64,000 nt of DNA, from positions 86,199,921 through 86,263,920 of the forward strand of contig NC_092383.1 in NCBI RefSeq assembly GCF_030028105.1. Direction: 5' to 3'. This document shows, in pieces, positions 2,985 through 55,931 of the stretch. Numbering within the stretch: position 1 is the first letter of the stretch; every line of letters begins with the position of its first letter. The stretch comes from Mobula birostris (taxonomy: Eukaryota). The translations under genes and the position numbers were made by a program. Below the pieces are notes generated by a model. That model had not been told where the DNA came from, did no database searches, and saw nothing but the letters and a program-made list of their open reading frames with translations.

Positions 2985-3015
<31 letters not shown>

Positions 3016-10310: not shown

Positions 10311-11143
10311 ATGCAATCATTTGATCAGAATAAAATAAAAGTTAATTGAAATTGGGTATATTTCCAGTCAATATTCAGGGGTATTAAAGACGAATGAACA
10401 ATGGAATTAAAAGTTGGGTGTTGAACAAAATGAGTGATTGCCTTGTTGCAGCTTGCAATGGTCAACGGGGTGTGAATCTGCAAATAGAAGTTGCTACTTT
10501 TCTCAGAGTTGACATGTAACTGTAACCCGTCGATGTACAATTCGCCTCGGAGCTGCTACATGAAGGGAGCTGTTTGCAGATGTAAAGATCATCACTCATG
10601 ATAACAAAATGCAAAATATTAGAAGATTCTTTGTAATCAGATAACAATGTGGTATAGCACAAGTTTTTTTCACACAGTGGATGAGAAAGAGAATAAGTAA
10701 GGCAAAAGGCCAGCATTACATTGAAAACTGCAGCAGGTCACTCTTATGCAGCGAGTTTCAACCTGGAATAAAACCGCAACCTACAATCCAATTTTGAGCT
10801 TATTATAGTTGTATATCTTTCACCTTTGATTGAGATGATGTCAGTTTCTTTGATTAATATGACAGAGGATTCACATTTTAAGGCATCAAGTTTCAGTAAC
10901 TGACAGACTATAGTTTCAAGATCAGGCACCTGAATCAGCATGGATAACTTCACTCACTCAACACTGAACTGATCATGACACAGAAACCTAAGGGCTCACT
11001 TTCAAGGACTCCATAACTCGTGTTCTCAGTATTTATTTATTTGGAGATTCAGCACAGAACAGGCTCTTTAGGCCCAATGAGCCACACTGCCCAGTAACCC
11101 ACCGATTTAACCCAGCCTAATCCCAGCACAGTCTTCACTAATT

Positions 11144-11444
11144 CATTTGACACAAGAAGATGGATTTCACTGTATGCTTCGAAGTTTTGATGTAAATTTG
11201 ATGAATATAAAGCTAATTTTTAAAAATAAAACAGAATATACATGCAATATTTCCTTCCCGACCCTGTAGCCCATTGGTTTCTACTGAAACTGAATATTGG
11301 TGACCAGTATTCCATGGCACCAATACATTGTGTGTGACTGATTTACTGTTGCATAGGGGCAATCATTTATGATCACCTTTCCTACAACTCCTCTTACCCC
11401 ATCTCTCCATCTCCACAATCCATCTCTCTCTAACCAAAAGTAAA
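11144..11444 (-). pseudogene. Gene 2 degenerate IgV exon
   Basis: Reads GVRGVVGKVIINDCPY..SHTMYWCHG, then a frameshift, YSVSVETNGLQGR, an AT-rich decayed middle and EIHLLVSN at the end; no C2 exon found downstream. Confidence 0.75.
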
Positions 11445-12913
11445 CTGAAATTGAAAGCAAAATTCTTGAGGATCTGAAGAGAATTCAGAATTGAAGCGAA
11501 TGAGGGTGAGAGACAACATGATAGAGATGTACAAGATGATCAGAGGCAGAGATCAAGCGGTGATCCAGAGAATATCTCAGGGCAGAAATGGCCAATGTGT
11601 GGGGGAATAATTTCAAGGTGATTGGAGGAAAGGATTGAGAGGGTGTCCGAGGCATGTTCTTTACACAGAGTGGTGGGAGCATAAAAAGCCTTACCAGGAG
11701 TGGTGGTAGAGGCAGATACACTTAAAAGACTCTTAGATAGGCTTATGGATTATAGGAGAGCTTTAGAAGGGATGGATTAGATTGATCTTATAGTAACACA
11801 CAAATGCCAGAGAAACTTAGCAGGCCAGGCAGCACCTATAGAAACAGGTACTGTCCACGTTTCGGGCTCAGACCCTTCAGCACCTACTCCCCAGTTTTCA
11901 GGAACAGTAATTACCCTTTCACCATCATACTCCTGAACCGATGTGGATAACTTCACTCACTTGAACTGTGAACTGATTCCACAACACATGGAATCAGTCT
12001 CACTTTCAAGGATTCTGCAGCTCATACTCTCAGTATAAAAATAATGTATTAAAATATGTGTATTTTTATCTGCACTATTTGTCTTCTTTTGCACCTTGGT
12101 TGTTTGTCTGACTTCATTTATGTAGGTTTACACAAATTCTATCACATTGCTTTATTTTTCTCTAAACGCCTGAAAGAAAATGAATCTCACTGTAGTATAT
12201 GCTGACATGCATGTACTTTGATAATAAATTTACTTTGACTTTGACTAGTGCAGCACTTTGTCAAAAGGCTTTTGAAAATCCAAGTAAACAACATCCACTG
12301 ATGGACAAAGTCTTGTTCCTCTATGCAGCCTGTTAATTCTTTAAGGAGTTCTAACAAATTTGGCAGGGTAGATTTCTCCTTAAGCAGATTATGCTGACTT
12401 CAGCCTATCTTACCATATACCTCCAAGTACTCTGAAACCTCATCCTTAATAACAGATTCTAACATCTTAGCAAACACTGAAGTCGGACTAATTGTCCTAT
12501 AACATCCTGCCTTTTGTCTCCCTCCCTTCTTAAAGAAATGAGTGACATTTGTAGTTTTCCATTCCTCTGGAACCATACTTGAAAGATTATTACTCATGCC
12601 TCTACAATCTCTTCAGTTAGCTCCTTCAGAACCATGGGGTGCAGTCCAAGTAACTGATCCTATTTCACAATGTCCTCTCTCCTATTTACACCATCTTCCC
12701 TCTCCACTCAGGTTCAATGCAGAGTCTCAACCCAAACCACCAACAATTCCCTTCCCCCAGACAGATGCTGCTTGGCCTGCTGAGTTCCTCCAGGAGATTT
12801 CTCTGAACTCCAGTTTCTGACATCTTTAGTGTCTACACGTATTCAAGCCCTGTTCTGGAAACAATGCAAACCAAAACTGATTATAAAAATACCCCATGCT
12901 GGTTGTCACTCAC

Positions 12914-14327: not shown

Positions 14328-14554
14328 TCCAGGCACTGCAGTAATATTGATGGTACTTGCATTGAAGGATTGACAACATCGAGCCACTTCATTGGTGCCT
14401 GATACCGTTGGATACCCAGATGAGGTTATTTCATACCATGTGTACTGAATGGGAAAGGATCCCTGCAAGGACTCACAGGAAACTGACACTGAGTCCCTGA
14501 GACGTGAAACATTTGCTGTTGACAGATATCGAAGCACAGGAGAAGACACGGGTT
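14328..14554 (-). pseudogene. Gene 3 C2 exon, frameshifted and 3'-truncated
   Basis: tttccacag acceptor, PVSSPVLRY..SVSCESLQGSFPIQYTWYE; 1-nt loss before QYYC; ends at YYCSA without a donor. Confidence 0.85.
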
Positions 14555-14615
14555 CTGTGGAAAGGAATTCAACAATCAGACACTAAATGAACATATGAAA
14601 TCAAAAACTCCTCTA

Positions 14616-16010
14616 CCACTTTATTAGGTACACCTGTTCACCTGTTTGTAAATGCAAATATCTAATTAGCCAATCATGTGGCAGCATACTTACACACCTG
14701 GAGAAGAGGGATGCTGATGTGAGAATACTGTTCTTGGACCACAGTTCAGCATTCAACACCATAATTCCCTCCAGGCTTGACAAGATACTCAGAGACCTCA
14801 GCCTTCACCCTGCCTTGTGCAGCTGGATCCTGGACTTCCTGTCAGTTCACCGGCAGGTGGTAAAAGGGGGGTTCCCTCATCTCTGCCCCTCTGACCCTCA
14901 ACACAGGAGCCCCTCAGGGCTGTGTCCTAAGCGTCCTCCTTTACTCTCTGTATACTCATGACTGTGTTGTCACCTACATGTCCAATCTGCTAATTGTATT
15001 TGCAGATGATACTATATTGATTGGCCTTATCTCAAATAATAACAAGACAGCCTACAGGGAAGTCATCACCCTGACACTGTGGTGTCAAGAAAACAACCTC
15101 TCCCTCAATGTCGCAAAAACAAAGGAGCTGGTTGTGGATGACAGGAGGAATGGACACAGGCTAACCACTATTGACATCAATGGATCTGAGGTTGAGAAGG
15201 TAAACAGCATCAAGTTCCTTGGCATACACATCACCAAGGATCTCAAGTGGTCTGTACATACTGGCTGTGTGGCGTAAAAAGCACAACAGCACCTCTTTCA
15301 CCTCAGATGGTTGAAGAAGTTTGGCATGGGTCCCCAAATCCTCAGGACTTTCTACAGGGACACAATTGAGAGCATTCTGACTGGCTGCATCACTACCTGG
15401 TATGGGAACTGTACCTCCCTCAATCACAGGACTCTGCAGAGAGTGGTGTGGACAGCCCAGCACATCTGTGGATGTGAACTTCCCAATATCCAGGATATTT
15501 ACAGTGATAGGTGCATAAAAAAGGTCCGTAGGATCATTAGGGACCCAAGTCACCCTAACCACAAACTGTTCTGGGACAGCTTCTTCCATCAGGCCATCAG
15601 ACAGATTAATTCGTGCTGATACAATTGTATGTCTATGCTACATTGACTGTCCTGTTGTACATACTATTTATTACAAATGACTATAAATTGCACTTTGCAG
15701 ATTCAGACAGAGATGTAGTGTAATAATATTTACTCCTCATGTATGTGAAGGATGTAAGAAATATAGTCAATTCAATTCAACACAGTCCATAAAAGCATGC
15801 AGACATGGTCCAGAGATTCAGTTGTTGTTCAGGTCAAACATCAGAATGTGGAAGAAGTGTGATCAAAGTAACTTTACGCATGAAATGATTGTAAGCGGTT
15901 GTTTGAGTATCTCAGATAATGCAGATCTCCTGGAATTTTCACACTGTCTCTAGAGTTGGTAGAGAATAGTGCAAAAAACAAAAAAAAAAATCCATGGAGC
16001 AGCAATTCTA
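14616..16010. mobile_element. Tc1-like remnant split by a nested LINE
   Basis: CCACTTTATTAGGTAC start at 14616, resumes at 15781 and fuses to the V exon at about 16010. Confidence 0.6.
14691..15780 (+). mobile_element. Rex1/Babar-like LINE RT fragment (frameshifted)
   Basis: RILFLDHSSAFNTI..FADDT..KTKELVVD..KFLGIHI..IESILTGCITTWYGNC in ORFs 14719, 14978 and 15311; (TCAAT)n tail. Confidence 0.85.
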
Positions 16011-16014
16011 TAAG

Positions 16015-16306
16015 CATAAAATCTCGTATCAACACCTGTTGCTGTAATTCTACAGCCGTACCATCCTGTATCTCCCGTGTGAAGATCCTCCATAGTAACA
16101 GCAAATACTCCCCATTCCGGGTCATCTGTGATTGACACTCGGCTACTCCGTCCGTGTTGCCCATTTGTTTCCACTAAAACTGAACATTGTTGACTCTATC
16201 CATGGTACCAATACTTTGTGTGTGAGCGGTACGTTGCATCAGTGATAATCGATTGTGATCACTCTTCCCACAACCCCTCTTACATCTTTCTCCTCACACA
16301 ATGCAC
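16015..16306 (-). pseudogene. Gene 3 IgV exon, inactivated
   Basis: Close paralog of the gene 1 V exon; B-strand Cys to Tyr, frameshift, TGG to TAG, and 3' end plus donor deleted after GVDTRF. Confidence 0.9.
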
Positions 16307-28515: not shown

Positions 28516-28759
28516 ATAACTGTATCCTCTTTTATCTTAACATTACTCCTCCTACCAGATCAATTCTTTAAACTAACACTCTTCCATTTTTAACTCAGAT
28601 CTGATGAGAAATCCCTGACCTGAAACTGGATTTAATGAAAAGTTCCTGTTATGATTTGCAGCTTCAAAACAGTGAACGAATTCAAAACAAACAACAGAGC
28701 TGGGAAATGAGAATCTTAGACTGTGTTTCTACTTTAAGTGAGGTGCACATGTATCACGT

Positions 28760-28975
28760 AGAAACATAGAAAATAGGTGCAGGAGTAGGCCATTCGGCCC
28801 TTCGAGACTGCACTGCCATTTATTATGATCATGGCTGATCATCCAACTCAGAACCCCGCCCCAGCCTTCCCTCCACACCCCCTGACCCCCGTAGCCACAA
28901 GGGCCATATCTAACTCCCTCTTAAATATAGCCAATGAACTGGCCTCAACTGTTTCCTGTGGCAGAGAATTCCACA
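28760..28975 (-). mobile_element. CR1 3' tail fragment inserted in the Gypsy 3' LTR
   Basis: Near-identical to the reverse complement of 32450-32670 and to 33650-33860. Confidence 0.85.
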
Positions 28976-29396
28976 CTTTCACCATGTTGGTGTCATGACA
29001 TATCAATTCATTTCATTTACTTATGAACCATATTTAATTACTTAAACAAACAAGAATACTTAATCAAACAATATTTACAATATTACTCGAATACTACTGA
29101 AATATTAAATACACAACACTCCTTGCAACTTAAGTATAAATTCCATCTGAATAGAAAATGCATCTCTCTATATATACAGTATACTATATGAAGGATTTCA
29201 TACTCGTGGCATATCATCCTTCCTGAAACAGAGGATCACTCTGCTTAACAGATGAGACTTGTAGCTGTGAAACCATCTTAGGTTCTGGGGCCTCCTCCAC
29301 AGTGGGTTGTAAGAGCTGTTGACCCTGAGACTGCAGGAAGTGGTTCTGACTGCGATGGACATCTTTCTTCTCTTTCCCATTTCTTCTTCTAGTTCA

Positions 29397-29452
29397 TGCA
29401 TTTAGTTCACTGGAGTATTCTCTTATTAATCCTTCTATTGCTCCCTTTACAA
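29397..29452 (-). pseudogene. RBM25: RBM25 retro-fragment, 3' piece (VKGAIEGLIREYSSELNA)
   Basis: Matches recalled vertebrate RBM25 IKGAIEVLIREYSSELNA; contiguous with 32681-33137 once the CR1 and one TSD copy are removed. Confidence 0.85.
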
Positions 29453-32400
29453 AAGGACGGGTTGCACTTGAATCCTAGGGGGACCAATATCCTGGCAGGG
29501 AGATTAGCGGGGGCTACTGAGGTGACTTTAAACTAGAATGGTTGGGGGGTGGGAATCAAATTAAAGAGGCTAGGCGTGAGGAGGTTAGTTCACAACAGGG
29601 GGATGGGAACCAGTGCAGAGAGACAGAGGGGTGTAAGGTGAGGGTAGAAGCAAAAAGTACTATGGAGAAAAGTAAAAGTGGCAGGCCGACAAATCCAGGG
29701 CAAGCATTAAAAAGGGCCACTTTTCAGCATAATTGTATAAGGGCTAAGAGAGTTGTAAAAGAGCGCCTGAAGGCTTTGTGTGTCAATGCAAGGAGCATTC
29801 GTAATAAAGTGGATGAATTGAAAGTGCAGATTGTTATTAATGATTATGATATAGTTGGGATCACAGAGACATGGCTCCAGGGTGACCAGGGATGGGAGCT
29901 CAACGTTCAGGGATATTCAATATTCAGGAGGGATAGACATGAAGGAAGGGGAGGTGGGGTGGCGTTGCTGGTTAAAGAAGAGATTAACGCAATAGAAAGG
30001 AAGGACATAAGCCGGGAAGATGAGGAATCGATATGGGTAGAGCTGCGTAACACTAAGGGACAGATGACACTGGTGGGAGTTGTGTACAGGCCACCTAACA
30101 GTAGTAGTGAGGTCGGAGATGGTATTAAACAGGAAATTAGAAATGTGTGCAATAAAGGAACAGCAGTTATAATGGGTGACTTCAATCTACATGTAGATTG
30201 GGTGAACCAAATTGGTAAAGGTGCTGAGGAAGAGGATTTCTTGGAATGTATGCGGGATGGTCTTTTGAACCAACATGTTGAGGAACCAACTAGAGAGCAG
30301 GCTATTCTGGACTGGGTTTTGAGCAATGAGGAAGGGTTAATTAGCAATCTTGTCGTGAGAGGCCCCTTGGGTAAGAGTGACCATAATATGGTGGAATTCT
30401 TCATTAAGATGGAGAGTGACATAGTTAATTCAGAAACAAAGGTTCTGAACTTAAAGAGGGGTAACTTTGAAGGTATGAGACGTGAATTAGCTAAGATAGA
30501 CTGGCAAATGACACTTAAAGGATTGACGGTGGATATGCAATGGCAAGCATTTAAAGGTTGCATGGATGAACTACAACAATTGTTCATCCCAGTTTGGCAA
30601 AAGAATAAATCAAGGAAGGTAGTGCACCCATGGCTGACAAGAGAAATTAGGAATAGTATCAATTCCAAAGAAGAAGCATACAAATTAGCCAGAGAAAGTG
30701 GCTCACCTGAGGACTGGGAGAAATTCAGAGTTCAGCAGAGGAGGACAAAGGGTTTAATTAGGAAGGGGAAAAAAGATTATGAGAGAAAACTGGCAGGGAA
30801 CATAAAAACGGACTGTAAAAGCTTTTATAGATATGTAAAAAGGAAAAGACTGGTAAAGACAAATGTAGGTCCCCTGCAGACAGAAACAGGTGAATTGATT
30901 ATGGGGAGCAAGGACATGGCAGACCAACTGAATAATTACTTTGGTTCTGTCTTCACTAAGGAGGACATGAATAATCTTCCAGAAATAGTAGGGGACAGAG
31001 GGTCCAGTGAGATGGAGGAACTGAGCGAAATACATGTTAGTAGGGAAGTGGTGTTAGGTAAATTGAAGGGATTGAAGGCAGATAAATCCCCAGGGCCAGA
31101 TGGTCTGCATCCCAGAGTGCTTAAGGAAGTAGCCCAAGAAATAGTGGATGCATTAGTGATAATTTTTCAAAACTAGTTAGATTCTGGACTAGTTCCTGAG
31201 GATTGGAGGGTGGCTAATGTAACTCCACTTTTTAAAAAAGGAGGGAGAGAGAAACCGGGGAATCATAGACCGGTTAGCCTAACGTCGGTGGTGGGGAAAC
31301 TGCTGAAGTCAGTTATCAAGGATGTGATAACAGCACATTTGGAAAGTGGTGAAATGATCGGACAAAGTCAGCATGGATTTGTGAAAGGAAAATCATGTCT
31401 GACGAATCTCATAGAATTTTTTGAGGATGTAACTAGTAGAGTGGAAAGGGGAGAACCTGTGGATGTGGTATATTTGGATTTTCAGGAGGCTTTTGACAAG
31501 GTCCCACACAGGAGATTAGTGTGCAAACTTAAAGCACATGGTATTGGGGGTAAGGTATTGGTGTGGGTGGAGAGTTGGTTAGCAGACAGGAAGCAAAGAG
31601 TGGGAATAAACGGGACCTTTTCAGAATGGCAGGCGGTGACTAGTGGGGTACTGCAAGGCTCAGTGCTGGGACCCCAGTTGTTTACAATATATATTAATGA
31701 CTTGGATGAGGGAATTAAATGCAGCATCTCCAAGTTTGCGGATGACACGAAGCTGGGGGGCAGTGTTAGCTGTGAGGAGGATGCTAAGAGGATGCAGGGT
31801 GACTTGGACAGGTTGGGTGAGTGGGCAAATTCATGGCAGATTCAATTTAATGTGGATAAATGTGAAGTTATCCACTTTGGTGGCAAAAATAGGAAAACAG
31901 ATTATTATCTGAATGGTGGCCGATTAGGAAAAGGGGAGGTGCAACGAGACCTGGGTGTCATTATACACCAGTCATTGAAAGTGGGCATGCAGGTACAGCA
32001 GGCGGTGAAAAAGGCGAATGGTATGCTGGCATTTATAGCGAGAGGATTCAAGTACAGGAGCAGGGAGGTACTACTGCAGTTGTACAAGGCCTTGGTGAGA
32101 CCCCACCTGGAGTATTGTGTGCAGTTTTGGTCCCCTAATCTGAGGAAAGACATCCTTGCCATAGAGGGAGTACAAAGAAGGTTCACCAGATTGATTCCTG
32201 GGATGGCAGGACTTTCATATGAAGAAAGACTGGATGAACTGGGCTTGTACTCGTTGGAATTTAGAAGATTGAGGGGGGATCTGATTGAAACGTATAAGAT
32301 CCTAAAGGGATTGGACAGGCTAGATGCAGGAAGATTGTTCCCGATGTTGGAGAAGTCCAGAACGAGGGGCCACAGTTTGAGGATAGAGGGGAAGCCTTTT

Positions 32401-32673
32401 AGGACCGAGATTAGGAAAAACTTCTTCACACAGAGAGTGGTGAATCTGTGGAATTCTCTGCCACAGGAAACAGTTGAGGCCAGTTCATTGGCTATATTTA
32501 AGAGGGAGTTAGATATGGCCCTTGTGGCTATGGGGGTCAGGGGGTATGGAGGGAAGTCTGGGGCGGGGTTCTGAGTTGGATGATCAGCCATGAGCATAAT
32601 AAATGGCGGTGCAGGATCGAAGGGCCGAATGGCCTACTCCTGCACCTATTTTCTATGTTTCTATGTTTCTATG
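29453..32673 (+). mobile_element. Young CR1 LINE, ORF2 (APE + RT) nearly intact, ORF1 truncated
   Basis: ORFs 29542..31176 and 31210..32574 are one frame broken by a single TAG at 31174-31176; FADD motif, (TTCTATGT)n tail, 7-bp TSD TTTACAA at 29446-29452 and 32674-32680. Confidence 0.95.
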
Positions 32674-32680
32674 TTTACAA

Positions 32681-33137
32681 CCTGATCTGCCCTCTAGGTT
32701 TCCTCATCCACAACCTGTGGCAAATCCTCTGTTTTTGTCTCTCCTTTGACTCTATTTCTTTTTGGCCTTCCTTTCATCGATCTGGTCTTTGGTCTTTGGT
32801 CTTTGCATCTACTTTTACAAGCAATTTTTTCTCCTACTTGACATTCCTGCAACAACCATAAAACACACAGAGTAGGTTTCAGTTCTTTACAGGCACAAAA
32901 GCCAAATGCTTGCAACTTTCCTGAAGATCCTTAAACTCTCCTCCAGCTTAAAACCAAGCCACATTTCACAAGTATCTGACTGATTAACTTATCAGAAGCT
33001 TTCTCAGACATGTTGCCTATAAAAACTGTTGTAGTCCAACTAGTGCTTTCATCATTTTCACTCTTCCTCTGAGCAGCGTGGCCCTTCCTTACAGGAATAT
33101 GCTTTCCAATCAGAGGTATAGAAGTTGGAACCAACAC
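32681..33137 (-). pseudogene. RBM25: RBM25 retro-fragment, 5' piece (RRM region), intron-less, with stops and frameshifts
   Basis: VLVPT..GKH..ENDE..TTTVFIGNMSEKASDKLISQILVKCGLVLSWRRV*GSSGKLQAFGFC..KLLVKVDAKTK..DEET*RADQ, recognised as RBM25 from about residue 53 onward. Confidence 0.9.
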
Positions 33138-33649
33138 ATGTTTGTTCTCAGTTAGGCAATGGTTTATGATGTATGTCAAAGAGGCAGTTGTGGCATTATC
33201 TAGTACCTTTCTTAATTTGGTTTCAGTCGGCTTCATTGCAAGGGATGTGGCATGCAATTGGTGGATGGATCTCCAATCGAGTAGCAGTTGTCTCAGCAAA
33301 TGAAGTCCCCACAATGCTGGTCCTTCTGTTTTTACCACATACAAGCTCAATGTGGCTCACAGTTCTGCATGTCATTCCCACAGGAGTTATCCTTTTACCA
33401 GTATAAGTTCTCAGTTGAATATTTGCAGGCTTCACTTTGGTATCTTTCAAATGCTGTTTAAACTCATTTTGTGGGATGACTGAAACAGCTGAACTAGTGC
33501 CTAATTCCATTTTACTAATTTGTCGTTTACTCCTGGTGTAAGCCACATTGCTTGTTTGTTGTTAATTTTCATACAGTAAAGCTCAAGGCTACACAGTCCT
33601 GTGTCACTCTCATCATAATCAGATTTTTCATCTACAGCATGCAGATTTG

Positions 33650-35103
33650 AAACATAGAAAATAGGTGCAGGAGTAGGCCATTCGGCCCTTCGAGCCTGCA
33701 GTGCCATTTATTATGATCATGGCTGATCATCCAACTCAGAACCCCGCCCCAGACTTCCCTCCATACCCCCTGACCCCCATAGCCACAAGGGCCATATCTA
33801 ACTCCCTCTTAAATATAGCCAATGAACTGGCCTCAACTGTTTCCTGTGGCAGAGAATTCCACAGATTCACCACTCTCTGTGTGAAGAAGTTTTTCCTAAT
33901 CTCAGTCCTAAAAGGCTTCCCCTTTATCCTCAAACTGTGACCCCTCGTTCTGGACTTCCCCAGCATCGGGAACAATCTTCTTGCATCTAGCCTGTCCAAT
34001 CCCTTTAGGATTTTATACGTTTCAATCAGATCCCCCCTCAATCTTCTAAATTCCAACGAGTACAAGCCCAGTTCATCCAGTCTTTCTTCATATGAAAGTC
34101 CTGCCATCCCAGGGATCAATCTGGTGAACCTTCTTTGTACTCCCTCTATGGCAAGGATGTCTTTCCTCAGATTAGGGGACCAAAACTGCACACAATACTC
34201 CAGGTGTGGTCTCACCAAGGCCTTGCACAACTGCAGTTGTACCTCCCTGCTCCTGTACTCGAATCCTCTCCCTATAAATGCCAGCATACCATTCGCCTTT
34301 TTCACCGCCTGCTGTACCTGCATGCCCACTTTCAATGACTGGTGTATAATGACACCCAGGTCTCGTTGAACCTCCCCTTTTCCTAATCGGCCACCATTCA
34401 GATAATAATCTGTTTTCCTATTTTTGCCACCAAAGTGGATAACTTCACATTTATCCACATTAAATTGAATCTGCCATGAATTTGCCCACTCACCCAACCT
34501 ATCCAAGTCACCCTGCATCCTCTTAGCATCCTCCCCTCCTCACAGCTAACACTGCCGCTCAGCTTCGTGTCATCCGCAAACTTGGAGATGCTGCATTTAA
34601 TTCCCTCATCCAAGTCATTAATATATATTGTAAACAACTGGGGTCCCAGCACTGAGCCTTGCAGTACCCCACTAGTCACCGCCTGCCATTCTGAAAAGGT
34701 CCCGTTTATTCCCACTCTTTGCTTCCTGTCTGCTAACCAATTCTCTATCCACATCAATACCTTACCCCCAATACCATGTGCTTTAAGTTTGCACACTAAT
34801 CTGTGTGGGACCTTGTCAAAAGCCTTTTGAAAATCCAAATATACCACATCCACTGGTTCTCCCCTATCCACTCTACTAGTTACATCCTCAAAAAATTCTG
34901 AGATTCGTCAGACATGATTTTCCTTTCACAAATCCATGCTGACTTTGTCCGATGATTTCACCACTTTCCAAATGTGCTGTTATCACATCTTTGATAACTG
35001 ACTCCAGCAGTTTCCCCACCACCGACGTTAGCCTAACTGGTCTATAATTCCCTGGTTTTTCTCTCCCTTTTTTTTTAAAAAGTGGGGTTACATTAGCCAC
35101 CCT
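33650..35103 (-). mobile_element. Young 5'-truncated CR1 LINE, same subfamily as 29453-32673
   Basis: ORFs 33736..34518, 34398..34871 and 34888..35160 almost identical to 31210..32574; tail at 33650. Confidence 0.93.
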
Positions 35104-35248
35104 TAGTGCTTTTTCGAAACTGCAAGTTGACTTTTTAGCTTTTTTGCTTCCTAGTACCATGCATTTATTTTTGTCTGGCTGGCAAGTTCTTTGTATGTGT
35201 CCTACTTTGTTGCACTTTCTGCAAGTTTCAGCTTTAAACCTGTATTTG

Positions 35249-35961
35249 TGTCACAATGGGGTGCTGGGAATGGACCCAAATACAAGAAACAGACACTGAA
35301 GTACAAGGAACAGGACTTGACTAGAGTAGGGACGTGACAGGATACAGACAAGGAGCAGGGACAAGAACGCAGACTAGGGCTTGGATCCCAAGCCAGAGAC
35401 TGGACAAGGACCCAAAACCTGGGTTTTGTCTCGGGCTCAGGCCCCAGAACCAGGCATGGACATGACATGACTGCAGGACTGGAGTTTGGGGTCTTGAGGC
35501 TTGAGGCTTGGAGACAGGCTAGGGGTCTTGAGGCTGGAGGCTTGGAGACAGGCTAGGGGTCTTGGTCTTGAGGCTTGGAGACAGGCTTTGGGTCTTGAGG
35601 CTTGGAGACAGGCTTGGGGTCTTGGTCTTGAGGCTTGGAGACAGGCTTGGAGTCTTGGTCTTGAGGCTTGGAGACAGGCTTGGGGTGCTGGTGTTGAGGT
35701 TTGGGGTCTTGGTCTTGAAGTGAGCAGGCAGAGAGTCAGGCAAGGTATCCAGGCAGAGAGTCAGGCAAGGGGGAAACAACAGGGAGGGGAGCAGGACAGT
35801 CCAGCAGGGAATTCCTGGTTTGTAGAAGTATTTATGTCTCAGCCCCAAAACGAGAAACATGTGACCCAAACAGAAACTGGGGAATATCAGAAACCCTGGA
35901 ACGAGGAACCATGGACCGGACCGTGAAGCGGAACACGGACTTTACGGACCGGACTATGACA
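35249..35961. mobile_element. Solo LTR inserted in the gag zinc-knuckle region
   Basis: TGTCA..TGACA termini; 5-bp TSD ATTTG at 35244-35248 and 35962-35966. Confidence 0.9.
35485..35720. repeat. About 27-34 bp tandem repeat inside the solo LTR
   Basis: About 7 variable copies of GGTCTTG(GTCTTG)AGGCTTGGAGACAGGCT. Confidence 0.9.
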
Positions 35962-37991
35962 ATTTGTTTGGTGAACATGAGCCCCTGACACAATGGTAAC
36001 ACAATTTGTTCAGCCAGGCCAGTTTATGTTTGGACAATGTAATTTGTCTACACTCACTTTCATTCCTGATTGCAATTTAATTGTATCTCTGTGTGTGGTT
36101 TCCATTGAAACAGCAATTTTACCTGCTCTCTCGAATGTAAGTTGTGCTACAGTTAGGAATCATTTGTGAATGCTTTCTTGAAAGATTCCACAAAATAAAT
36201 AATCTCTCAGTACATCTTTAAGCCTATTGTTGAGGTGACAATGGTCAGGCAATCTCTTCAATTCAGCCATGAACACTGAAGTGGGCTCCCCTTCTTTTAG
36301 ATTTTGCTTATGAAACCTAAAGCTTTCTGCAACAAACAGTGGCATTGTTTCTAAATGTTCTTGAGAATATTAGCAAAGCTAATTTCTGCTGGTTTGTTTG
36401 GAGCAGTCAAACTTTGAAGCAAACTATATGCCTTTAAAGGCAAAGTACTTGGAAAAATTTGCACTCATTTCTTGATGTCTATTACATTTTCTTCAAGCTA
36501 GTGTTGAATTAGTTCAGTATACATATTCCCCTGCCACGTACATGATTTCCCAATATGTCTGAGCGGCGTGGAGGGAAATTTTCCGCCAAATGGAAATTCC
36601 AGATGCGACCTAACAACGACGATACACATTCCAATTATCTGCTATGGAATCAGACAAGCCAATCTTTCTGATGTAGCCATCTGTGTCTGCTGTTTTAAAT
36701 GATGATTATCGCCCAGTACTCACTCTTTATGAATGGATGAATTCTTCTGATATCTGACTTTTTTAATACTTGATCGTGTTCTCCCTTCAGAAGAACATGT
36801 GCTGTGCTGTTTTTTAATTAAACTTGACCATCTTTCTATGTGCTGGGCTACGATTTTTTTAACTTGCAGTGTTTTTTTTTAGTTCAAATATTTCTCTGCG
36901 TTTCAACAGGTTGACAGCTACCTAACATTCATTTTAAAGATACGTCATCGCCAATGTATGTTTTGTAACTTCAAAACATCAAACTAATTCAAAAGGAAAT
37001 ACGGGAGTCGGGGAATATTCTTCACTTCATTCTTCACTTCAAGTGAGGCATGTATGTATCATGTAAATTAAATATATCTTCATTCTAGCTCACATGTAAC
37101 CCATAATTTATTATTTTCACACACACACAAACACACAAGATGACTCATATAGAACTGAAATACTAAATACAGCTTCCACTAGTAGGGGAGCCAAGGACAA
37201 AAGGGCAGTCTCAGAATGGACGGACATCCCTTCAGAACAGAAATAAGGAGGAATATCCTTCATCAGAGGTGGTGAATCTGTGGAATTCATTATTACAGAT
37301 GGCTGTGGAGACCAAGTCATTGGGTATATTCATTAGTGAGGGCATTAAAGCTTACAGGGAGAAGGCAGGAGAATAGAGTTTACTGGGATAATATATCAGC
37401 TATGATAGAATGCCGAAGCAAACTTTACGGGCCAAATGGCCTTACCCTGCTCCTGTGTTTATGGCCCTATGGTCTTGATTCCATCAAGAAAATCCAGGAA
37501 CCTGAATGTGATCTGTTCACCATGTTTGAATTTTCATTCTCAACTAAGCCAAGAGGATAAATTAGTTATTAGCATCAACAATTTGTTAATAAGAATATTA
37601 GCTGATTGTTTATTAATTATTGAAACATACAACAACAACCTCAGGCATTTGAGTCCATAGAACAGCATTTAATAGAGTAAACTGGTCTTAAGCAGTTCAC
37701 AGCCATGACAGGGTTAAAAATCGTTGCTTGCGCAATGAAAAGAAAACATTGTGAAAAGGTGCCATACAGTTGAGATCTGTGAAGGTGACATGTTGGAAAT
37801 GGAATGCTAAAAAAAGTCAAAGTCCTTACGTATGGTAACATTATTTTTTCACCTTCATGAAGTTGTTAATGAATGACAAGAGAGGTTAATTCACAGATGT
37901 TAAATTTGTCTATATTCTGAAAAAGTATGACTATTTCATCTTGGTGTGAAATTCCAGCAGAATCTGTGTGATCCAGAAGCCTTCACTTTAC

Positions 37992-39846: not shown

Positions 39847-41266
39847 AACAAAGGTTCTGAACTTAAAGAGGGGTAACTTTGAAGGTATGAGACGTGAATT
39901 AGCTAAGTTAGACTGGCAAATGACACTTAAAGGATTGACGGTGGATATGCAATGGCAAGCATTTAAAGGTTGCATGGATGAACTACAACAATTGTTCATC
40001 CCAGTTTGGCAAAAGAATAAATCAAGGAAGGTAGTGCACCCATGGCTGACAAGAGAAATTAGGGATAGTATCAATTCCAAAGAAGAAGCATACAAATTAG
40101 CCAGAGAAAGTGGCTCACCTGAGGACTGGGAGAAATTCAGAGTTCAGCAGAGGAGGACAAAGGGCTTAATTAGGAAGGGGAAAAAAGATTATGAGAGAAA
40201 ACTGGCAGGGAACATAAAAACGGACTGTAAAAGCTTTTATAGATATGTAAAAAGGAAAAGACTGGTAAAGACAAATGTAGGTTCCCTACAGACAGAAACA
40301 GGTGAATTGATTATGGGGAGCAAGGACATGGCAGACCAATTGAATAATTACTTTGGTTCTGTCTTCACTCAGGAGGACATGAATAATCTTCCAGAAATAG
40401 TAGGGGACAGAGGGTCCAGTGAGATGGAGGAACTGAGCGAAATACATGTTACTAGGGAAGTGGTGTTAGGTAAATTGAAGGGATTGTAGGCAGATAAATC
40501 CCCAGGGCCAGATGGTCTGCATCCTATAGTGCTTAAGGAAGTAGCCCAAGAAATAGTGGATGCATTAGTGATAATTTTTCAAAACTCGTTAGATTCTGGA
40601 CTAGTTCCTGAGAGTTGGAGGGTGGCTAATGTAACCCCACTTTTTAAAAAAGGAGGGAGAGAGAAACCGGGGAATTATAGAACGGTTAGCCTAACGTCGG
40701 TGGTGGGGAAACTGCTGGAGTCAGTTATCAAAGATGTGATAACAGCACATTTGGAAAGTGGTGAAATGATCGGACAAGGTCAGCATGGATTTGTGAAAGG
40801 AAAATCATGTCTGACGAATCTCATAGAATTTTTTGAGGATGTAACTAGTAGAGTGGATAGGGGAGAACCAGTGGATGTGGTATATTTGGATTTTCAAAAG
40901 GCTTTTGACAAGGTCCCACACAGGAGATTAGTGTGCAAACTTAAAGCACACGGTATTGGGGGTAAGGTATTGATGTGGATGGAGAATTGGTTAGCAGACA
41001 GGAAGCAAAGAGTGGGAATAAACGGGACCTTTTCAGAATGGCAGGCGGTGACTAGTGGCATACCGCAAGGCTCGGTGCTGGAACCCCAGTTGTTTACAAT
41101 ATATATTAATGACTTGGATGAGGGAATTAAATGCAGCATCTCCAAGTTTGCAGATGACACGAAGCTGGGTGGCAGTGTTAGCTGTGAGGAGGATGCTAAG
41201 AGGATGCAGAGTGACTTGGATAGGTTGGGTGAGTGGGCAAATTCATGGCAGATGTAATTTAATGTG
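39847..41266 (+). mobile_element. Internal fragment of the young CR1 subfamily, truncated at both ends
   Basis: Near-identical to about 30434-31855; no 3' tail. Confidence 0.9.
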
Positions 41267-41619: not shown

Positions 41620-43957
41620 CTGTTGAGGCAAGGAAAGAAAATTCAGTCTCGCATGTTTACCCAGTGCAGTCAAGCAAGAGTACATGATTGGCAGGTGGAA
41701 ACTCATGGTTTGAGTAAAAGGCTGATTGGTTACAGGGAGGTGAGTAATTTCTGTTTCTTGTGCATATTTGAACACCTGTTGCTGGGGAAATTACAAGGCT
41801 TGAGTTGGAGGGTTTGCAAACCATAATCCTAAGCAGACAGAAGTGGAAGTTCCAGCCAGGCAATTGACATCTGCCAGCTCTGGGAGATCTGTTGTTGGGG
41901 CCACAACACCCACCGGAAAGACATACACATCTCTGCACTGAGTGTATGTGGAGATATTGGACCAAGTACAGTTGTTGATACAACAGGATAATGCTTCTGT
42001 TCTCAATGAAAAAACAACTTGTATAATGCAAGATGCTGGAGGAACTCAGCAGTTCAGGCTGCATCTATGGAAAGAATAAACAGTCGACATTTCAGACCAA
42101 GACCTTTCTGATGAAGGATCTTTGCATGAAAAATTGACTGTATACTTCTTTGCATAGATGCTGCCTGGCCTGATGAGTTCTTCCAGCATTTTGTATATGT
42201 TGTTCTTGTTCTCCAGCATCTACAGAATCTCTTCTGTTCCTGTTTTAATAGTGGGATGACAAATGTCATTGAACATCATAGAGTTATACAGTATGGGAAC
42301 TAGCCCTTCAGCTCAATTCATCCACACTAACCAGCATGAGCTAGTCCCATTGAGTCTACTCCACCATTTCAGCACAGCTGATCCATTTCCCTTTCAACCT
42401 CGTTTTCCTGCCTTCTCCCCATTACCTTTCATGTCCTGACTAATCAAGAACTTATCAACCACAGCCATAAAGGTATCTGGTGATCTGACCTTCACCACCA
42501 CCTGTGGCAACAAATTCCTGTCTCACCTCCCTCTGGCTAAAGAATTTCCTCCTCATCTCTGTTCCAAATGGACATCACTCTCTTTTGACTCTGTGCCCTC
42601 TGGGTTTTGACTTTCCCACCAATGGAAACATCCTCTTCACATCCACTGTATAAAGGCCTTTCACCATTCGATCAGCTTCAATCAGATCTCCCCTCATTCT
42701 TCTAAATTCCAGTGAGTACAGGTCCTGAGCCTTCAATTGCTATTCATATGATAATCTTTTCATTCCCGGAATCGTTCTTGTGAACCTCCTTTGAACTATC
42801 TCCAATGCCAACACATCTTATTTTAGATAAAAGGCCCAGAAATACTCACAATATGGACGTCCCTGAAAAGGACAGGCCTTCATTAATCAGAGGATTGAGA
42901 TCAAGAGTTGTGAGGTAATTGTGTAATACCAGTGGTCACCATCTACTGGCAGAATATCTATTGCGACCCTCTGCCTTCTGTAGGAAAACCAATTTCTATT
43001 ATTAGAATATCTCAAATGAAGAGGCACTGTAACAAGATAAGGATCGGGTAATTTAAAATTGGATTTAAATTCACAATCCTTGGAATCCTACACCTGGATG
43101 GTGGTGGAGGCTGGATCAGTGGGGATCTTTAAACAGAAAGTACCGTAGATATTTTTTGATATAGATCAGGAAATGGCGAACTGTAGGAAAATGATGCAGA
43201 AGAGCTAAGAAAGCCTAGTACAGATCAGCCAAGATGATATTGAATAGTGGAGTAGTCTTGAGACACCAAACAGCCTGCTTGGTTTCTTGAGTTCAGTCCT
43301 TACACCAATTGCATGTGACTTCCATTGCTTCTTTAGCCTGCATAATTCTCTCTATCTTCCACAAAACAAACTACTGGAAACTGTTTATAAATCCAGAAGG
43401 TGTGAGTTTGGGTATTTGCTGGTTCTCAAAGATGAGAAAATCTCAGTCAGCAACTAGAAATGTCAGCAATTTAGACGCAAAGCCACCATGCACAGCAAGA
43501 GCAGGCTGCAGGCAGGAAACTCTCTGGTGAGGGACTCACTTCTCAGCTACCGAACAGGGCATGCCGTTCCCTGCAAGATTTGTCACAATGCAGCTTAAAG
43601 AACATAACAGATGAACACTCCCACCCACTAACCCACCCCTCCACAACCCCCACCACCACTACTTTATCATTTCATGTCAGGCACCTCAGGTAGATACACT
43701 ATTGTGCCTAGCAGCAATTTACTTACATACAACCAATGTATATAAACAATTTTATGTATTTATATGTATCATGTTTATTAACGATTGTGTTCTGTACCTT
43801 ATTGTTATTTTTTATGGGTGCATTAGATCTAGAGTAACAATTAGTTTGTTCTCCTTATATTTGCATATTGGAAATGATATTAAGCAATCTTGAATCTTGA
43901 AGACGGTACATGATACTCAATCAATCTCCCTAATGATTCGCACCCTCCACCACTTAC

Positions 43958-44278
43958 CAGTGCCAGTGAACTGAATCACAAAGCTGCAGTTGTCTCCTCT
44001 GTTGTCGATGGACACGTTCACTATTTCACTAGACTTTGCTCCATGAGTATTGGAGGCAGTGCAGTAATATTGATAGTGTTGGTGTTTGAAGGATTGACAA
44101 CGTAGATCCAGTTGACTGTTTTCAGAGACTTTTGAATCCACAGATGAGATATTTTCATGCCATGTGTACTGAATGGGAAGGGATCCCTGGACAGACTCAC
44201 AGGACACTGACACGGAGCCCCCAACACACACGATATTTGCAGAAGACAGATATCGAAGCACAGGAACAGACACTGGTT
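43958..44278 (-). CDS. Gene 4 C2-type Ig exon
   Basis: tttcccacag acceptor, G|gtaagt donor, 321 nt, open, phase 1-1, paralog of 1110-1430. Confidence 0.9.
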
Positions 44279-44589
44279 CTGTGGGAAAGAATCAGTCAAC
44301 ATATTGAAATCAATATGTGGGCATCTGAACTCCACATCAATCCCAGATGCCTGAACCCCGCGTCTGCCACTATTCCAAAACACAGCAGGAGTCCAGATCA
44401 GAACAGCAGCAATGACAGTGAGGATGTGATGTGTCAGCGTGAAAATCAGGGTACAATCTCTCACAGCTACAAGGAGACAGTCACCACTGGTGTTTGAAAA
44501 AAAATAATGCAAGCGTTGTTTGAAGGTGATAGTTTAATGGAAACTTGTGAGACAAGCTCTTTAGCTACAATGATTGTGGCGACTCCCTG

Positions 44590-46345
44590 TAACACACAGA
44601 AATTACTGGAGGAACTCAGCAGGCCAGGGAGCACCTACAGAAAAGAGTACAGTCGACATTTTGGGCCAAGGCTTTTCAGCAGAACAGGAAGATGAGGACT
44701 CAGAGTCTGAGGGTGGGAGGAGGGGAGGGAGAAACGCAGGGTGATAGGTAAAACCAGTAGGGGGAAGCATAAAGTGACAGGGAGGGGAGAGGTAAAGGAA
44801 AGAGTTGGGAAGTTGATTGGTGAAAGAGATACAGGGCTGGAGAAAGCAGAATCGAATAGGGAAGGACAGAAGGCCATTGAGAAAGAAAAAGGGGGAGGAG
44901 CACCAGAGGGAAGTGATGGGCAGGCAAGAAGATAATGTGAGAGAGGGAAATGGGAATGGGCAATAGAGAAAGGGGGGGGGAGGAACATTACTGGAAATTC
45001 GAGAAATCAATGTTCATGCCATCAGGCTGGAGGCTACACAAACGGAACAAAAAGTGTTGCTCCTACAACCTGAGTGTGGCCTCATCACAGCAATAGAAGA
45101 AGCCAGAGACTGACAGGTTGGGATGGGATTGGGAAGTGGAACTAAAATGGGTGGACACTGCAAGGTCCCGCTTTTTCTGGTGGATGGAGTGTATATGCTC
45201 GGCAAAGTGGTCTTCCATTCTACTTTGGGTCTCACTGATATACAAGAGGCCACACCGGGAGTACCGGATACAATAGATGACCCCAACAGACTCACAGGTG
45301 AAGTGTCGCCTCGCCTGGAAGGACTGTTTTGGACCCTAAATGGTAGTGAGGGAGGAGATGTAGGGGCAGATGTAGCAGTTGTCCGCTTGCAAGGATAAAT
45401 GTCAGGAGGGAGTCTGTGGGGAGGTGTGAATGGACATGGGTGTTGTGCAGGAAGTGATCCCTGTAGAAAGCAGAAAGTGAGGGGAAAGGAAAGATGTGCC
45501 TGGTGACGGGATCCCATTGGAGATGGCAGAAGTTTCAGAGAAATATGTGATGGAGTTGCAGCTTAACGGGGTGGTAGGAGACAACAGGAGGAACCCTAAC
45601 ACTGATGGGGTGGTGGGAAGATAGGGTGAGGGCAGACGTGTGTGAAATTGAAGAGATGTAGTTGAGGGCAGTGTTGATAGTGGAGAAAGGGAAGCCCCTT
45701 TCTTTCAAGAAGGAGGACATCTCTATCCTCCTGGAGCGAAAAGCCTCAACGTGAGAGCAGATGCAGTACAGAAAGAGAAATTGAGGGAAGGGGTTTGGTA
45801 TTTTTACAAGTAACAGGGTGGGAAGAGGTATAGTCCAAGTAGCTGCAAGAGTCATTGGGGTTTGTAGCAATCTTCAGAGATAAACTGTCTCCAGAGATAG
45901 AGACAGACAATTTGAGGAAGGGAAGGGAGGTGCTGGAAAAGGACCTGGAAATTTAGAGTCAAAGTTGATGTAGTCAATTAGATCGGCATGGGTGCAGGAA
46001 GCAGCACCAATGCAGTCATCGACGTAGCATTGGAAACGTGAGGGAGAGACACCAGTATAGACTTGGAACGTAGATTGATCCATGCAGCCAACAAAAAGGC
46101 AGGCATAGCTGCGACCCATGCAAGTACCCATAGCTATTGTTTGAAGGAAGTGGGAGGAGCCAAAGGAGAAATTATTGAGAGTGACGATAAGTTCCGCAAG
46201 ATGGAGGAGAGTGGTGATGGAGGGGAACTGATTGGCTCTGGTGTCCAGAAAGCAGCAGAGACCTTTGAAGCCTTTCTGGTGGAGGATAGAGGTATGTAGG
46301 GAATGTACATGCATAGTGAAAATAAGATGCTCGGGGCCAGAGAAC
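44590..46345 (-). mobile_element. Penelope-like element (RT + GIY-YIG remnants) in the V-C2 intron of gene 4
   Basis: RT-like IFTM..SLHTSI..TLNNFSFGSSHFLQT..AMGT..YVDDC (ORF 45874..46485); GIY-YIG-like YISETQSRMEDHFAEH..THFSS (45063..45245); terminal repeat at about 44590-45000. Confidence 0.8.
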
Positions 46346-46588
46346 CGGAAATCAGGGTGGCATTTCATACAGTTCAGAGGCAGGAAAATGTACTGAGCCT
46401 TTCCACTGGAAATTGTTGGCCAGTCAGTGGGACGGACAACATGTGGGGTTCCCAAACCTTGCCCATCCCCCACAGGGCTCTGCACTGCTGAGGAGCCTCA
46501 GGATATCCATGCTTCTCTGACACTTCCTCGAGCAAATATGGATCAGACATTTCACTGGACACATAAAGGTAATCAAGGAGAAACCTAC

Positions 46589-46908
46589 CGTCAGATACTT
46601 GTAGATACACGTCAAACACTGGATGATTGCCAGATGTTGCAATTCCACATCTGTAAACTCCTGTATCTTGAGAGACAAGATTCTCCGTAGTAACAGTAAA
46701 TATTCCCTGGGATGTGTTATCTCTGATTGTCATTCTTCCATACTGCTCATTTGTCCCATTTGTATTCACTAACGATGTGCATTGGCGATCCCACATGCGG
46801 CACAAATACTTTGTGTGTGAACGGTACTTTGGTCATAGTGACAATCGATTGTGATCGCTCTTCCCACAACTCCTCTTACTTTGTTTTCTGCCCATAAAGC
46901 ACCCAAAA
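46589..46908 (-). pseudogene. Gene 4 IgV exon with one 1-nt deletion
   Basis: ctccctcag acceptor, G|gtagg donor, 320 nt (321 expected); frame shifts at GAC CA AAG TAC (about 46828-46832); otherwise open with four Cys. Confidence 0.8.
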
Positions 46909-52930: not shown

Positions 52931-53430
52931 GGTAAGATTCCATAGACTGTCCAGTATTCCCTGGTATTGGAAGCCTTCTAACTGCATCTGTTTCAGCCTG
53001 GTAAAATATTGCAGCTTTCTATGAGATCACCTTTCAGTCTGGTGAACTCCAGGAAATAAAAACCTGATCAACCAATTCTCTGTTCTTGTGTCACTCATGG
53101 CATCCCAGAAATCAGTCTGCTGATCCTTTGCTAGCTTCCTTCCATAACAAGAACATCTTTCATCAGACCAAAACTGTTGGTGACATGAGAGTGAGGATGA
53201 AGAGATTGTCTGACTGATTTAAGCTTTAGGCCAGAATGGAAAAGTGGGGTATGCGCCAAATTGAGGCAGCGAGTCCCAGGCACAGGAGCGTATCGAAGCA
53301 GCACGAACCCCCTACCATCTAAGCCATGTGTACTGGATATTGTGTTCCAACAATACAATATCCAGTACACATCAGTCACTCAGTTGTACTCCATTGACAA
53401 TCATAAAATATTAAACTCTGCACTACTTAC

Positions 53431-53751
53431 CCATTCTGTTGACATCAATCACATTTCTGCAGTTCCTGACATTGTTGGAGATGGACACGCTGATCATTTC
53501 ACTAGTCTTTTCCCCATTATCATTTGAGACTTTGCAATAATACAGATATTTTTTGTATTTTAAGGATTGACAATGTAGATCCAGTTTATTGGTAACAGAG
53601 ATCTTTGAATCCACAGTTGGGGTCTTTTCGTACCATGAATACTGAATGGGAAGGGATCCATGGCCAGACTCACAGGACACTGACACATAGTCCCCACAAC
53701 CTGAGCCACTTGTTAGTGGTGAAAATCGAAGCAAAGGAACAGACACGGGTT
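53431..53751 (-). CDS. Gene 5 C2-type Ig exon
   Basis: gttttccacag acceptor, G|gtaagt donor, 321 nt, open, phase 1-1. Confidence 0.9.
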
Positions 53752-54629
53752 CTGTGGAAAACAACCAATAAACATCTGAAAATCAAACACAGTAAAGATT
53801 TCAGCAGTTCTGTATCTCAACCAGGACCCACACGTCTGGAATCTCAGCAGCTCCTCTACCTCTCTGTGTCTCTGCATCCTCTTATCTGCCCGAACTGCCA
53901 TATCTGCCATTATCCCTGAACACAGCAGGTCTCCAGATCAGGACAGCAGTGATGACACTGAGTATGTATCTGTGTGAAAATCAGAGTTACAAACTCTCTC
54001 AGCAGCAAGGAGACAGTCTAATGTTGCAACCAACAGCTTGACTCTGAAAAGGCAGCACTTGTGGGTGTCCTGGAAACCTATCAACTTCTGCTTTAAATAT
54101 ATCCAATAATTTAGTCTCCACAGACTGTGGCAATGGATTCCACAGATTCACCAGCCGCTGGCTAAATAAATTCCTCCTCATCTCTCTTTTTTTCTGAGTC
54201 TGTGCCCTCTGGTCTTAGAGGTCCACACTACAGGAAGCATCCTCTCCACAACCATCAGCTTTTCTGTGCTCATTCTTCTAAGCTCCTGCAAGTGCACGCC
54301 CAGAGGTTTCAAACACTCCGCATACATCTGGGGAATTTAATATCTGGAGCCCTTTAGAGTTGATGTACAGAGAGTTTTTGGGGTTCAAGTCCATTGCTCC
54401 CTGAAAGCTGCAACACAAGTGGAAATAATGGTAATGAAAGCATTCAGCACATTTGCATTCTTCATTTTACATATTGGAAACTAAAGCTGACAAGGCATTT
54501 TGAAGCTTCATAAGACTTTGTTTAGGGCACATTTGCAACATACAATAATTTGTGATTCTGATAGCGACAGTATAGAAAAGATGTGGAGGTTTTAGAGAGG
54601 GTAAAAAGGTCATCAGGGTGTCACCAGGG

Positions 54630-54910
54630 CAGCATTGTAGACTAATGGTTAGCACAAGGCTTTACCGTGGCAATTTCTGCTGCTCTGTGTAAGGAGTTTG
54701 TGTGTTCTCCCCATGTCCACGTGGGTTTCTTCCAGGTGCTCTGGTTTCCTCCCACAGTCCAAAGACCTAGAAGTTGGTAGGTCAATTGGTTGTTATAGAT
54801 TGTCTGAGTTTGAGGCTGGGGTTAAGTCTGGGGGATTACTGGGTGGCACGTCTCAAAGGGCGTGAAAGGCCTCTCCACGCTATATCTCAATCAATGAATA
54901 AATCAAATAA
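54630..54910 (+). mobile_element. tRNA-derived SINE (V-SINE/HE1-like)
   Basis: A-box-like TAATGGTTAGCAC, core GGTTTCCTCCCACAGTCCAAAGAC, (AATA)n tail. Confidence 0.6.
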
Positions 54911-55931
54911 ATGAATAAATGTTACCTGGATTGTAGCTATGGGGAGAAGTTTGACAAACTTGGATCATTTTCGCTGCAGTATAGGAGGCTGAGGAGAGAC
55001 CTGATAGAAGTTTATGAAGTTATAGAAATCATAGATAGGGAAGATAGAATCTTTTCCCAGGGTTTAAATGTAAAATGATAGTGAGCATCGTTTGAAGGCA
55101 ATAGGGGGAATGTTTAAAGAATGTTTTCGAGACAAGTTTTATTTACTCTGAGGGTGCTGACTGCATGAAACACACCGACAGACTGGCTGGTAGAAAGGGA
55201 TATCATAACAATATTTAAGAAGCTTTTGGACATGGACATGAAAAGGGAGGGGTTGGAGAGATATGGACCACATGCAGTAAGATGGAAGTAGCTTAGAATG
55301 ATAGCATGGTCAGTGTAGACATGGTGGGCCAAAGAGTCAATTCTTGGGCTGTACATTATATCAATTTCTCCCTAACCCCATTGCTCTATTTCCCACCAGG
55401 AATGGGCTGAATGGGGAGGCTGGCTACCGGGAAGTGGATGGTTAGTGGGTGCTGGCGGGTGGTTTATGAGAGCACAGAGAGAGTGCCGGGTAGGGGTGGG
55501 AGTGACTGATCCATGAAGCAGGGATGGGAAATGGAATAGACTGCCCTGGGAGGACTGAACACAATCTGTAGTGATCTGGATCTGATTCCCTTTTTATGCT
55601 TTTTGAAGTGTTTAGACCATGTGAAACACTTGTTTCTCATTGACCTGTAAATATCAGATTCTTAGTTTTAGTCTGAATGCAAACCACTGTCAGAGCAACA
55701 TTTCATATGGTTCAGAAGCAGGATAATGTGCTGAGCCTCCCACTGGAAACCAGAGGGTCAGATCCCACACTGGGTGAGAGCAACTGGAGTGGGATTTCCG
55801 AACCCAGCACCCTCCCGCAGGGGCCTGCTCTGTAACAGAGCCTCTGAATATCGGTGCTGCCCTGACACTCCCCAGAGAAAACATGAATCAGACACTTCAG
55901 TGGAAAGATAAAGTCAAAATCGGAAACCTAC

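Follow-up and report, generated by a model that had tools for sequence, protein, structure and literature searches.

A high-copy, apparently non-autonomous LTR retrotransposon family of Mobula birostris with spliced RBM25 sequence in place of most of pol

The window, meaning the whole 64,000-nucleotide (nt) stretch analysed here (Mobula birostris NC_092383.1:86,199,921-86,263,920, forward strand), contains a decayed long terminal repeat (LTR) retrotransposon that lies on the minus strand from approximately 37172 to 28647 and carries an intron-less piece of the host gene RBM25. On this strand its parts are an LTR, a motif resembling a primer-binding site, gag, a protease region, RBM25, a 3' retroelement piece, a purine tract and a second LTR, which is the order claimed by the first-pass annotation, a reading of the DNA letters made before the analysis described here. 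That annotation placed the element at 28647..37065; its 3' end was correctly set, while the 5' LTR starts near 37172. The two LTRs of this copy share 72% identity over 231 columns. Its features, in the order of the element and in window positions, are:

36955..37172, minus strand: 5' LTR whose first few bases are missing or have diverged (the LTR of copy L025, used as a probe, aligns at 37171-36957)
36943..36954, minus strand: primer-binding-site-like motif directly after the 5' LTR; other copies have a similar decayed motif
35962..36680, minus strand: 5' part of gag with stops and frameshifts, at 70-78% identity to the gag sequences of parents and other copies
35250..35961, no strand assigned: nested solo-LTR-like insertion with TG...CA ends, a 5-bp duplication (CAAAT) and an internal tandem repeat
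35103..35249, minus strand: 3' part of gag with a zinc knuckle (zf-CCHC, E 0.0011, below cut-off)
33649..35102, minus strand: nested 5'-truncated CR1-type long interspersed nuclear element (LINE) with an RVT_1 match and 96-98% identity to further copies elsewhere in the window
33196..33648, minus strand: end of gag, aspartic protease region and linker preceding the reverse transcriptase (RT), approximately 80% identical to RT-bearing parents up to 33189
33186..33195, minus strand: 5' switch point, the last 10 nt of host exon 3, of which the first 7 (33195-33189) are common to the parent element
33138..33185, minus strand: host 48-nt in-frame cassette exon, 71% identity here, AG/GT ends at the host locus
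32674..33137, minus strand: RBM25 exons 4, 5, 6 and the first part of 7 (RNA recognition motif, RRM), intron-less, from the exon map, 82-90% identity
29453..32673, plus strand: nested young CR1-type LINE with a 7-bp duplication (TTGTAAA)
29397..29450, minus strand: RBM25 exon 7 continued, 96% identical to the host
29376..29394, minus strand: start of RBM25 exon 9, remaining after the deletion between exons 7 and 9 that is found in the short subfamilies
29364..29372, minus strand: 3' switch point, 9 nt common to host exon 10 and the parent integrase tail
29132..29363, minus strand: integrase C-terminal tail and 3' untranslated region, 70-80% identical to parents
29119..29131, minus strand: decayed polypurine tract
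28647..29118, minus strand: 3' LTR, split by a CR1 3' fragment at 28756-28984
28642..28646, minus strand: possible target-site duplication, suggestive, compared with 37173-37177

The element in the window is a dead copy without any activity. The stop, the frameshifts and the CR1 insertion described in the first-pass annotation are all present, but its account of the insertions was incomplete, as three more are nested in the copy (the four lie at 35250-35961, 33649-35102, 29453-32673 and 28756-28984). Within RBM25 exons 4-7 a stop at 32931-32933 is followed by frameshifts, and the catalytic motif of the aspartic protease is altered. The absence of RT, RNase H and integrase, also claimed, holds for RT, RNase H and the integrase core, but the 3' retroelement piece is the C-terminal tail of integrase; the RT matches inside the span of the element belong to the nested CR1 copies. 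The RBM25 open reading frame (ORF) of the window copy has no Pfam match of its own, and better-preserved copies match RRM_1. One of these, L017, is up to 76% identical to RBM25 proteins in the best 120 of 392 matches at E <=1e-10 (1128 candidates).

A protein search of the genome with the C-terminus of RBM25 placed the host gene at G000:C1:154.44-154.49 Mb and found host exons only (3 matches among 9 candidates); the exon numbers used here are our own labels. Matches from a search with the PWI family were rejected, being other genes than RBM25, presumably SRRM1 and PRPF3. The identity of the captured fragment was confirmed (83.7% to the host gene overall, with single exon pieces at 71-100%), although its length is approximately 600 nt (33195-32674, 29450-29397 and 29394-29376) and not the approximately 520 nt first proposed. 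It consists of the last 10 nt of exon 3, a 48-nt piece, exons 4, 5 and 6, most of exon 7 and the start of exon 9, with no intron sequence. Aligned to the host gene, the window copy crosses five exon junctions without introns, which supports a retrocopy, and the long copies of the family, extending through exons 8 and 9 into exon 10, cross eight. Most of the R/E-rich exons of the window copy have been lost by a deletion common to its subfamily, so that 29394-29376, part of what was originally taken as the 3' junction (29375-29395), is the start of exon 9, and the switch point is found at 29372-29364.

The 48-nt piece had been interpreted as a 16-codon linker. It maps inside host intron 3-4, flanked by a pyrimidine tract and AG/GT ends, and is spliced to exon 4 in contigs of two of four public runs (X1 and X3); on both grounds it is a real host cassette exon. 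The host also has a 30-nt in-frame microexon after exon 3 (L123:1225-1254, G000:C1:154446024-154446053), which is spliced in all four runs. In the element exon 3 is joined directly to the cassette, three exon 3 bases following the shared 7-mer in 38 of 53 fully aligned copies, and it is therefore likely that the captured mRNA skipped the microexon. A peptide filter applied to the 63 of 120 listed RBM25 proteins having the exon 4 start motif revealed no clear counterpart of microexon or cassette.

The flanks of the RBM25 piece were compared with RT-bearing relatives, which we take to be Ty3/Gypsy elements from their anatomy and from the likeness of motifs. The hallmarks of this group occur in copies of the family: a 248-bp LTR with TG...CA ends, a primer-site-like motif, a purine tract and 5-bp target duplications. 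The Pfam order in the parent is RVT_1, Integrase_H2C2 and rve, with RNase H recognized from translation only and the gag and protease matches below cut-off (PNMA at E 1e-3 for gag, and a weak gag-asp_proteas match at E 0.019 for one protease). LTRs, gag, protease region and integrase tail are 70-80% identical between parent and chimera, which are similar in age, whereas RT, RNase H and the integrase core are gone from the chimera and the integrase C-terminal tail is kept. Among 26 parent loci, RT was found in 22, integrase in 17 and RBM25 in none; conversely, 84 of 86 chimeric loci lack an RT or integrase match, and the two remaining matches lie kilobases from the joint. The pol segment replaced, measured from joint to joint, is 1.3-4.5 kb in 13 parents (2.8-3.0 kb in four of these).

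Comparison with these parents allowed the switch points to be mapped. At the 5' joint host and parent share an exact microhomology of 7 nt, and at the 3' joint, between host exon 10 and the integrase tail, one of 9 nt; the chance of such a match per random pair of points is approximately 7e-4 and 6e-5, respectively. The exact 9-mer is present in 13 of 25 parent tails, and in 64 of 85 copies the alignment starts at the identical exon 3 position. The joint sequences show neither poly-A nor a target duplication flanking the RBM25 piece. The integrase tail exists in two versions, seen in 5 and 6 of 25 parents (14 unclassified) and in 26 and 3 of 85 chimeras (56 unclassified). These shared tail types hint that chimera and parent RNAs may have recombined.

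The first-pass annotation had proposed a search for other chimeric copies, but missed the growth of the element into a non-autonomous family of an estimated thousands of copies. A comparison of the RBM25 piece with the genome gave 2,637 first-look candidates, and the 40 that were scored comprised five local duplicates and 35 loci elsewhere at 78-79% identity. The 20 dispersed loci examined first all have the same architecture. Exact matches to the 18-nt 5' joint number 237 genome-wide (control, 0), and five of 85 sampled copies keep it, from which we estimate approximately 4,000 copies, with a 95% range of 1,800-12,000. The matching parent 18-mer occurs 455 times, making the chimera roughly half as common as the parent, provided that the two are of like age. 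Of 25 dispersed loci selected by their protease region, 19 run on into RBM25 and six into RT, a ratio biased by the query, the exact junction counts giving approximately 1:2. Contig C2 has no listed match, though neighbours of similar rank have many; numbering may explain this, and the counts may be low.

Where both ends were located and the element starts with TG (24 copies), the 5-bp flanks match at four or five positions in 18 copies, compared with 3.1% of shuffled pairs. The 85 sampled copies fall into deletion groups designated long (17), B (16), C (5) and short (44), with three unassigned; the window copy groups with the short forms. Chimeric joints were also found in contigs from other organisms: the protease-RBM25 joint is bridged in organisms F and G (runs X16 and X17), protease is joined to exon 4 sequence in organism D (X12), and RBM25-to-tail joints occur in organism C (X9). 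The family is thus older than the split of these organisms. The element-like contigs come from runs that are presumed to be RNA, although no RNA source is recorded among the 21 runs, and carry neither strand nor level. Protein searches at E 0.001 (8 and 6 candidates) gave no named polyprotein or annotated chimera, a result that does not show absence.

The median LTR-LTR identity is 80.6%, or a Kimura two-parameter (K2P) distance of 0.229, in 31 pairs of which one is from a parent, and four parent pairs are at 77-83%; judged by this divergence, chimera and parent are of similar age. An assumed rate of 1e-9 per site per year would date the burst to approximately 100 million years ago. The shark mutation rate of 7e-10 in the portion of PMC10587355 available is given per generation, without a per-year value, and hence provides no firm date. 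The gag-protease tree is star-like, with mean terminal branches of 0.13 and internal branches of 0.007 (76 rows kept, those with fewer than 550 aligned bases being dropped).

By the pattern of substitutions, the copies evidently decayed neutrally after insertion. Their mean identity to the host, calculated over 200 codons from 83 of 85 copies, is 87.3%, and the ratio of nonsynonymous to synonymous change (pN/pS) among rare changes is 1.15 for transitions and 0.96 for transversions. Near-fixed differences from the host comprise 16 synonymous and one nonsynonymous, an excess that evolution of the host gene since capture would be expected to produce. Two candidate signals were discarded: apparent amino-acid variants at host positions 612-613 stem from the joint left by the exon 7-to-exon 9 deletion and are no point changes, and a stop in six of 16 long copies was not taken as shared because it fails correction for 327 variants. 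An intact ORF under purifying selection, as in a domesticated gene, is not what was found, the window copy having stops, frameshifts and four insertions and the rare changes being neutral across the 85 copies.

Taken together, the element very probably represents a non-autonomous, high-copy LTR family whose RT, RNase H and integrase core were replaced by spliced RBM25 sequence. A double template switch is the likely route of this replacement, and enzymes of the parent are likely to have spread the family. Capture of RBM25 mRNA by template switching, already proposed in the first-pass annotation, is supported by the five intron-less junctions, flanks that derive from a single element, replacement rather than interruption of pol, microhomology at both ends and the lack of poly-A or duplication; no outcome that the annotation named as a refutation applies. 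An RBM25 mRNA containing exon 3, the cassette and exons 4-10 would have been packaged together with element RNA, and the reverse transcriptase would have switched to this mRNA at the 9-nt match and returned at the 7-nt match. Retention of both LTRs, the primer site and the purine tract would then have permitted mobilisation in trans by parent enzymes, and the A/G-rich exons may later have been deleted from master copies. The window copy would afterwards have received its four insertions and have been duplicated together with an immunoglobulin (Ig) receptor gene cluster, which was amplified five-fold in tandem.

Other origins fit less well. The joining could have taken place in DNA, by recombination of an integrated element with RBM25 cDNA or a processed pseudogene followed by LTR amplification; DNA repair is also guided by short microhomologies, and the sequence is silent on where the joining took place. 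However, this requires two DNA events and a spliced donor, the C-terminal search described above found only host exons, and the anatomy fits published products of template switching, which makes such an origin quite improbable. A processed pseudogene of RBM25 made by a LINE and inserted into an existing LTR element would draw on machinery that is plentiful, as CR1-type LINEs abound in this genome and three sit in the window copy; yet approximately 2.8-3.0 kb of pol is replaced, not interrupted, the piece ends inside exon 10, and microhomology stands at both joints where poly-A and a duplication are missing. The replaced segment and the missing LINE hallmarks refute this origin, to which we give very little credence. 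Spread of one retrocopy by segmental duplication does hold for the five copies on the window's contig, which are 98-99.8% identical including their nested insertions. The other copies, on many contigs and at 78-79% identity to the window copy, have different 5-bp duplications and unrelated flanks, which refute segmental duplication of the dispersed copies; of the three it is the least credible.

Several observations weigh against the proposed history, including capture by template switching. Chimeras and parents each include both tail types, so a later recombination or several 3' switches are possible, and in the gag-protease tree the chimeras separate from the parents without forming a clean clade (six label changes; shuffled labels give 13). 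Mobilisation in trans is what we infer, and none of the parent copies found is intact. The number of approximately 4,000 is extrapolated from five of 85 copies, and the exact 18-mer occurs in none of the 19 protease-selected copies. Of 17 joints in present-day contigs 15 are listed, none of them joining exon 3 to the cassette, and the window copy's own target-site duplication matches at only four of five positions.

A further proposal adds to this history instead of replacing it, namely that an in-frame Gag-protease-RRM protein was translated in master copies and aided their spread, for example via RNA binding, so that the RRM was kept by selection. As first annotated, the fusion in the window copy is in frame: retroelement residues lead without a break into the RBM25 RRM in the frame 32931-33356, which the stop at 32931-32933 closes. 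In copies L016, L116, L172 and L096 a single open frame covers both protease tail and RRM, as it does over 333 amino acids (aa) in L115, and overlapping open stretches of different copies suggest that gag and protease lie in the same frame. The protease-selected copies (n=19) keep the RRM in 15 cases and the R/E region in none, and amino-acid changes of intermediate frequency, beyond CpG decay and the deletion joint, occur in the cassette and before the RRM but not inside it. Nevertheless, one in three joints would be in frame a priori, microhomology deletion readily affects the A/G-rich R/E region, just four or so informative changes are too few for testing, and the 16 to 1 near-fixed differences are explained by host evolution alone. 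Exact junction counts also show the chimera to be less common than its parent (237 and 455, respectively). A comparison of codon positions in gag and protease was confounded by CpG decay and by indels of the reference copy. No evidence of selection on the fusion was found in the 85 copies sampled, and we regard selective retention of the RRM as unlikely. It is doubtful, though a little less so, that the element profited from the RRM in a wider sense, whether through such a protein or by hiding from small-RNA silencing behind conserved host sequence, with this driving amplification and RRM-sparing deletions while the family also archived an ancient RBM25 splice form. The open stretch in L115 (4096-5094, minus strand) begins in the protease tail, spans the RRM and extends into the integrase tail; gag is broken in this copy, which is likely a chance survivor.

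The window copy sits in a 105.7-kb unit present in five tandem copies, between which the whole element, insertions included, is 98-99.8% identical. According to Pfam, Ig V-set and Ig-domain exons are arrayed in tandem within the unit, on the strand of the element, a cluster that we take to resemble CD300/pIgR-like receptors. In the window these exons are on the minus strand at 1102-2612, 43920-46832 and 53426-56337, with related copies near 14362-16238. The five-fold, approximately 99% identical Ig unit is either a recent immune-receptor expansion or an over-expansion of the assembly. As to the nested elements, repeats similar to the 35250-35961 insertion, which belongs to another family, lie approximately 10 kb upstream of the window. 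At 29521-32574 (plus strand) the nested CR1 retains an almost complete endonuclease-RT frame (551 and 465 aa with a single stop between), and it is 96-99% identical to the copies at 33649-35102 and 39847-41192, indicating a young LINE family.

The family shows a known type of accident at measurable scale, with thousands of dated, neutrally decaying copies of at least seven RBM25 exons that serve as a built-in clock against the host gene and as a fossil of an old splice form. With it one can test directly if captured cargo benefits the element that carries it, and if small RNAs made from copies approximately 87% identical to the host mRNA can reach that mRNA. In these genomes, RBM25 annotation and read mapping will be inflated by the copies.

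Among known systems, acutely transforming retroviruses are replication-defective and helper-dependent, and carry a spliced piece of host coding sequence fused in frame to gag. The chimera differs in that no env was seen, the captured piece bears no sign of selection, and it is a germline retrotransposon and not an infectious virus. With no RT, RNase H and integrase of its own, it is not an autonomous LTR element either; nor does it have the poly-A, target duplication and insertion into continuous sequence of a LINE-made pseudogene. In maize Bs1 and other gene-capturing plant LTR elements pol is likewise partly replaced by host gene segments, but Bs1 carries pieces of three genes where here a single vertebrate splicing-factor mRNA lies in frame behind gag and protease (PMC13317346, as far as that source was available). 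In the searched literature, covering titles and abstract openings and excluding subscription journals, Repbase and Dfam, no RBM25-carrying LTR family was found. The closest parallel is the LTR-mediated retroposition in animals described, with its hallmarks and secondary retroposition, in the accessible parts of Tan et al. 2016 (PMC5131818). As in those retrocopies, a partial intron-less mRNA replaces an internal part of the ORF between two retained LTRs, microsimilarity is present at both joints (their median being 6 bp), the insert lacks poly-A or duplication, and further retroposition as a non-autonomous element followed. By contrast, the nine Drosophila retrocopies given there occupy 18 insertion sites, against an estimated 4,000 here, although Table 8 of that paper may hold higher-copy cases; the RBM25 chimera also differs from the cases seen there in having deletion subfamilies, in being old and in being common to several organisms. 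The mechanism is thus already known, and what is unusual is the scale, together with a preserved splice form that is not among the joints listed today.

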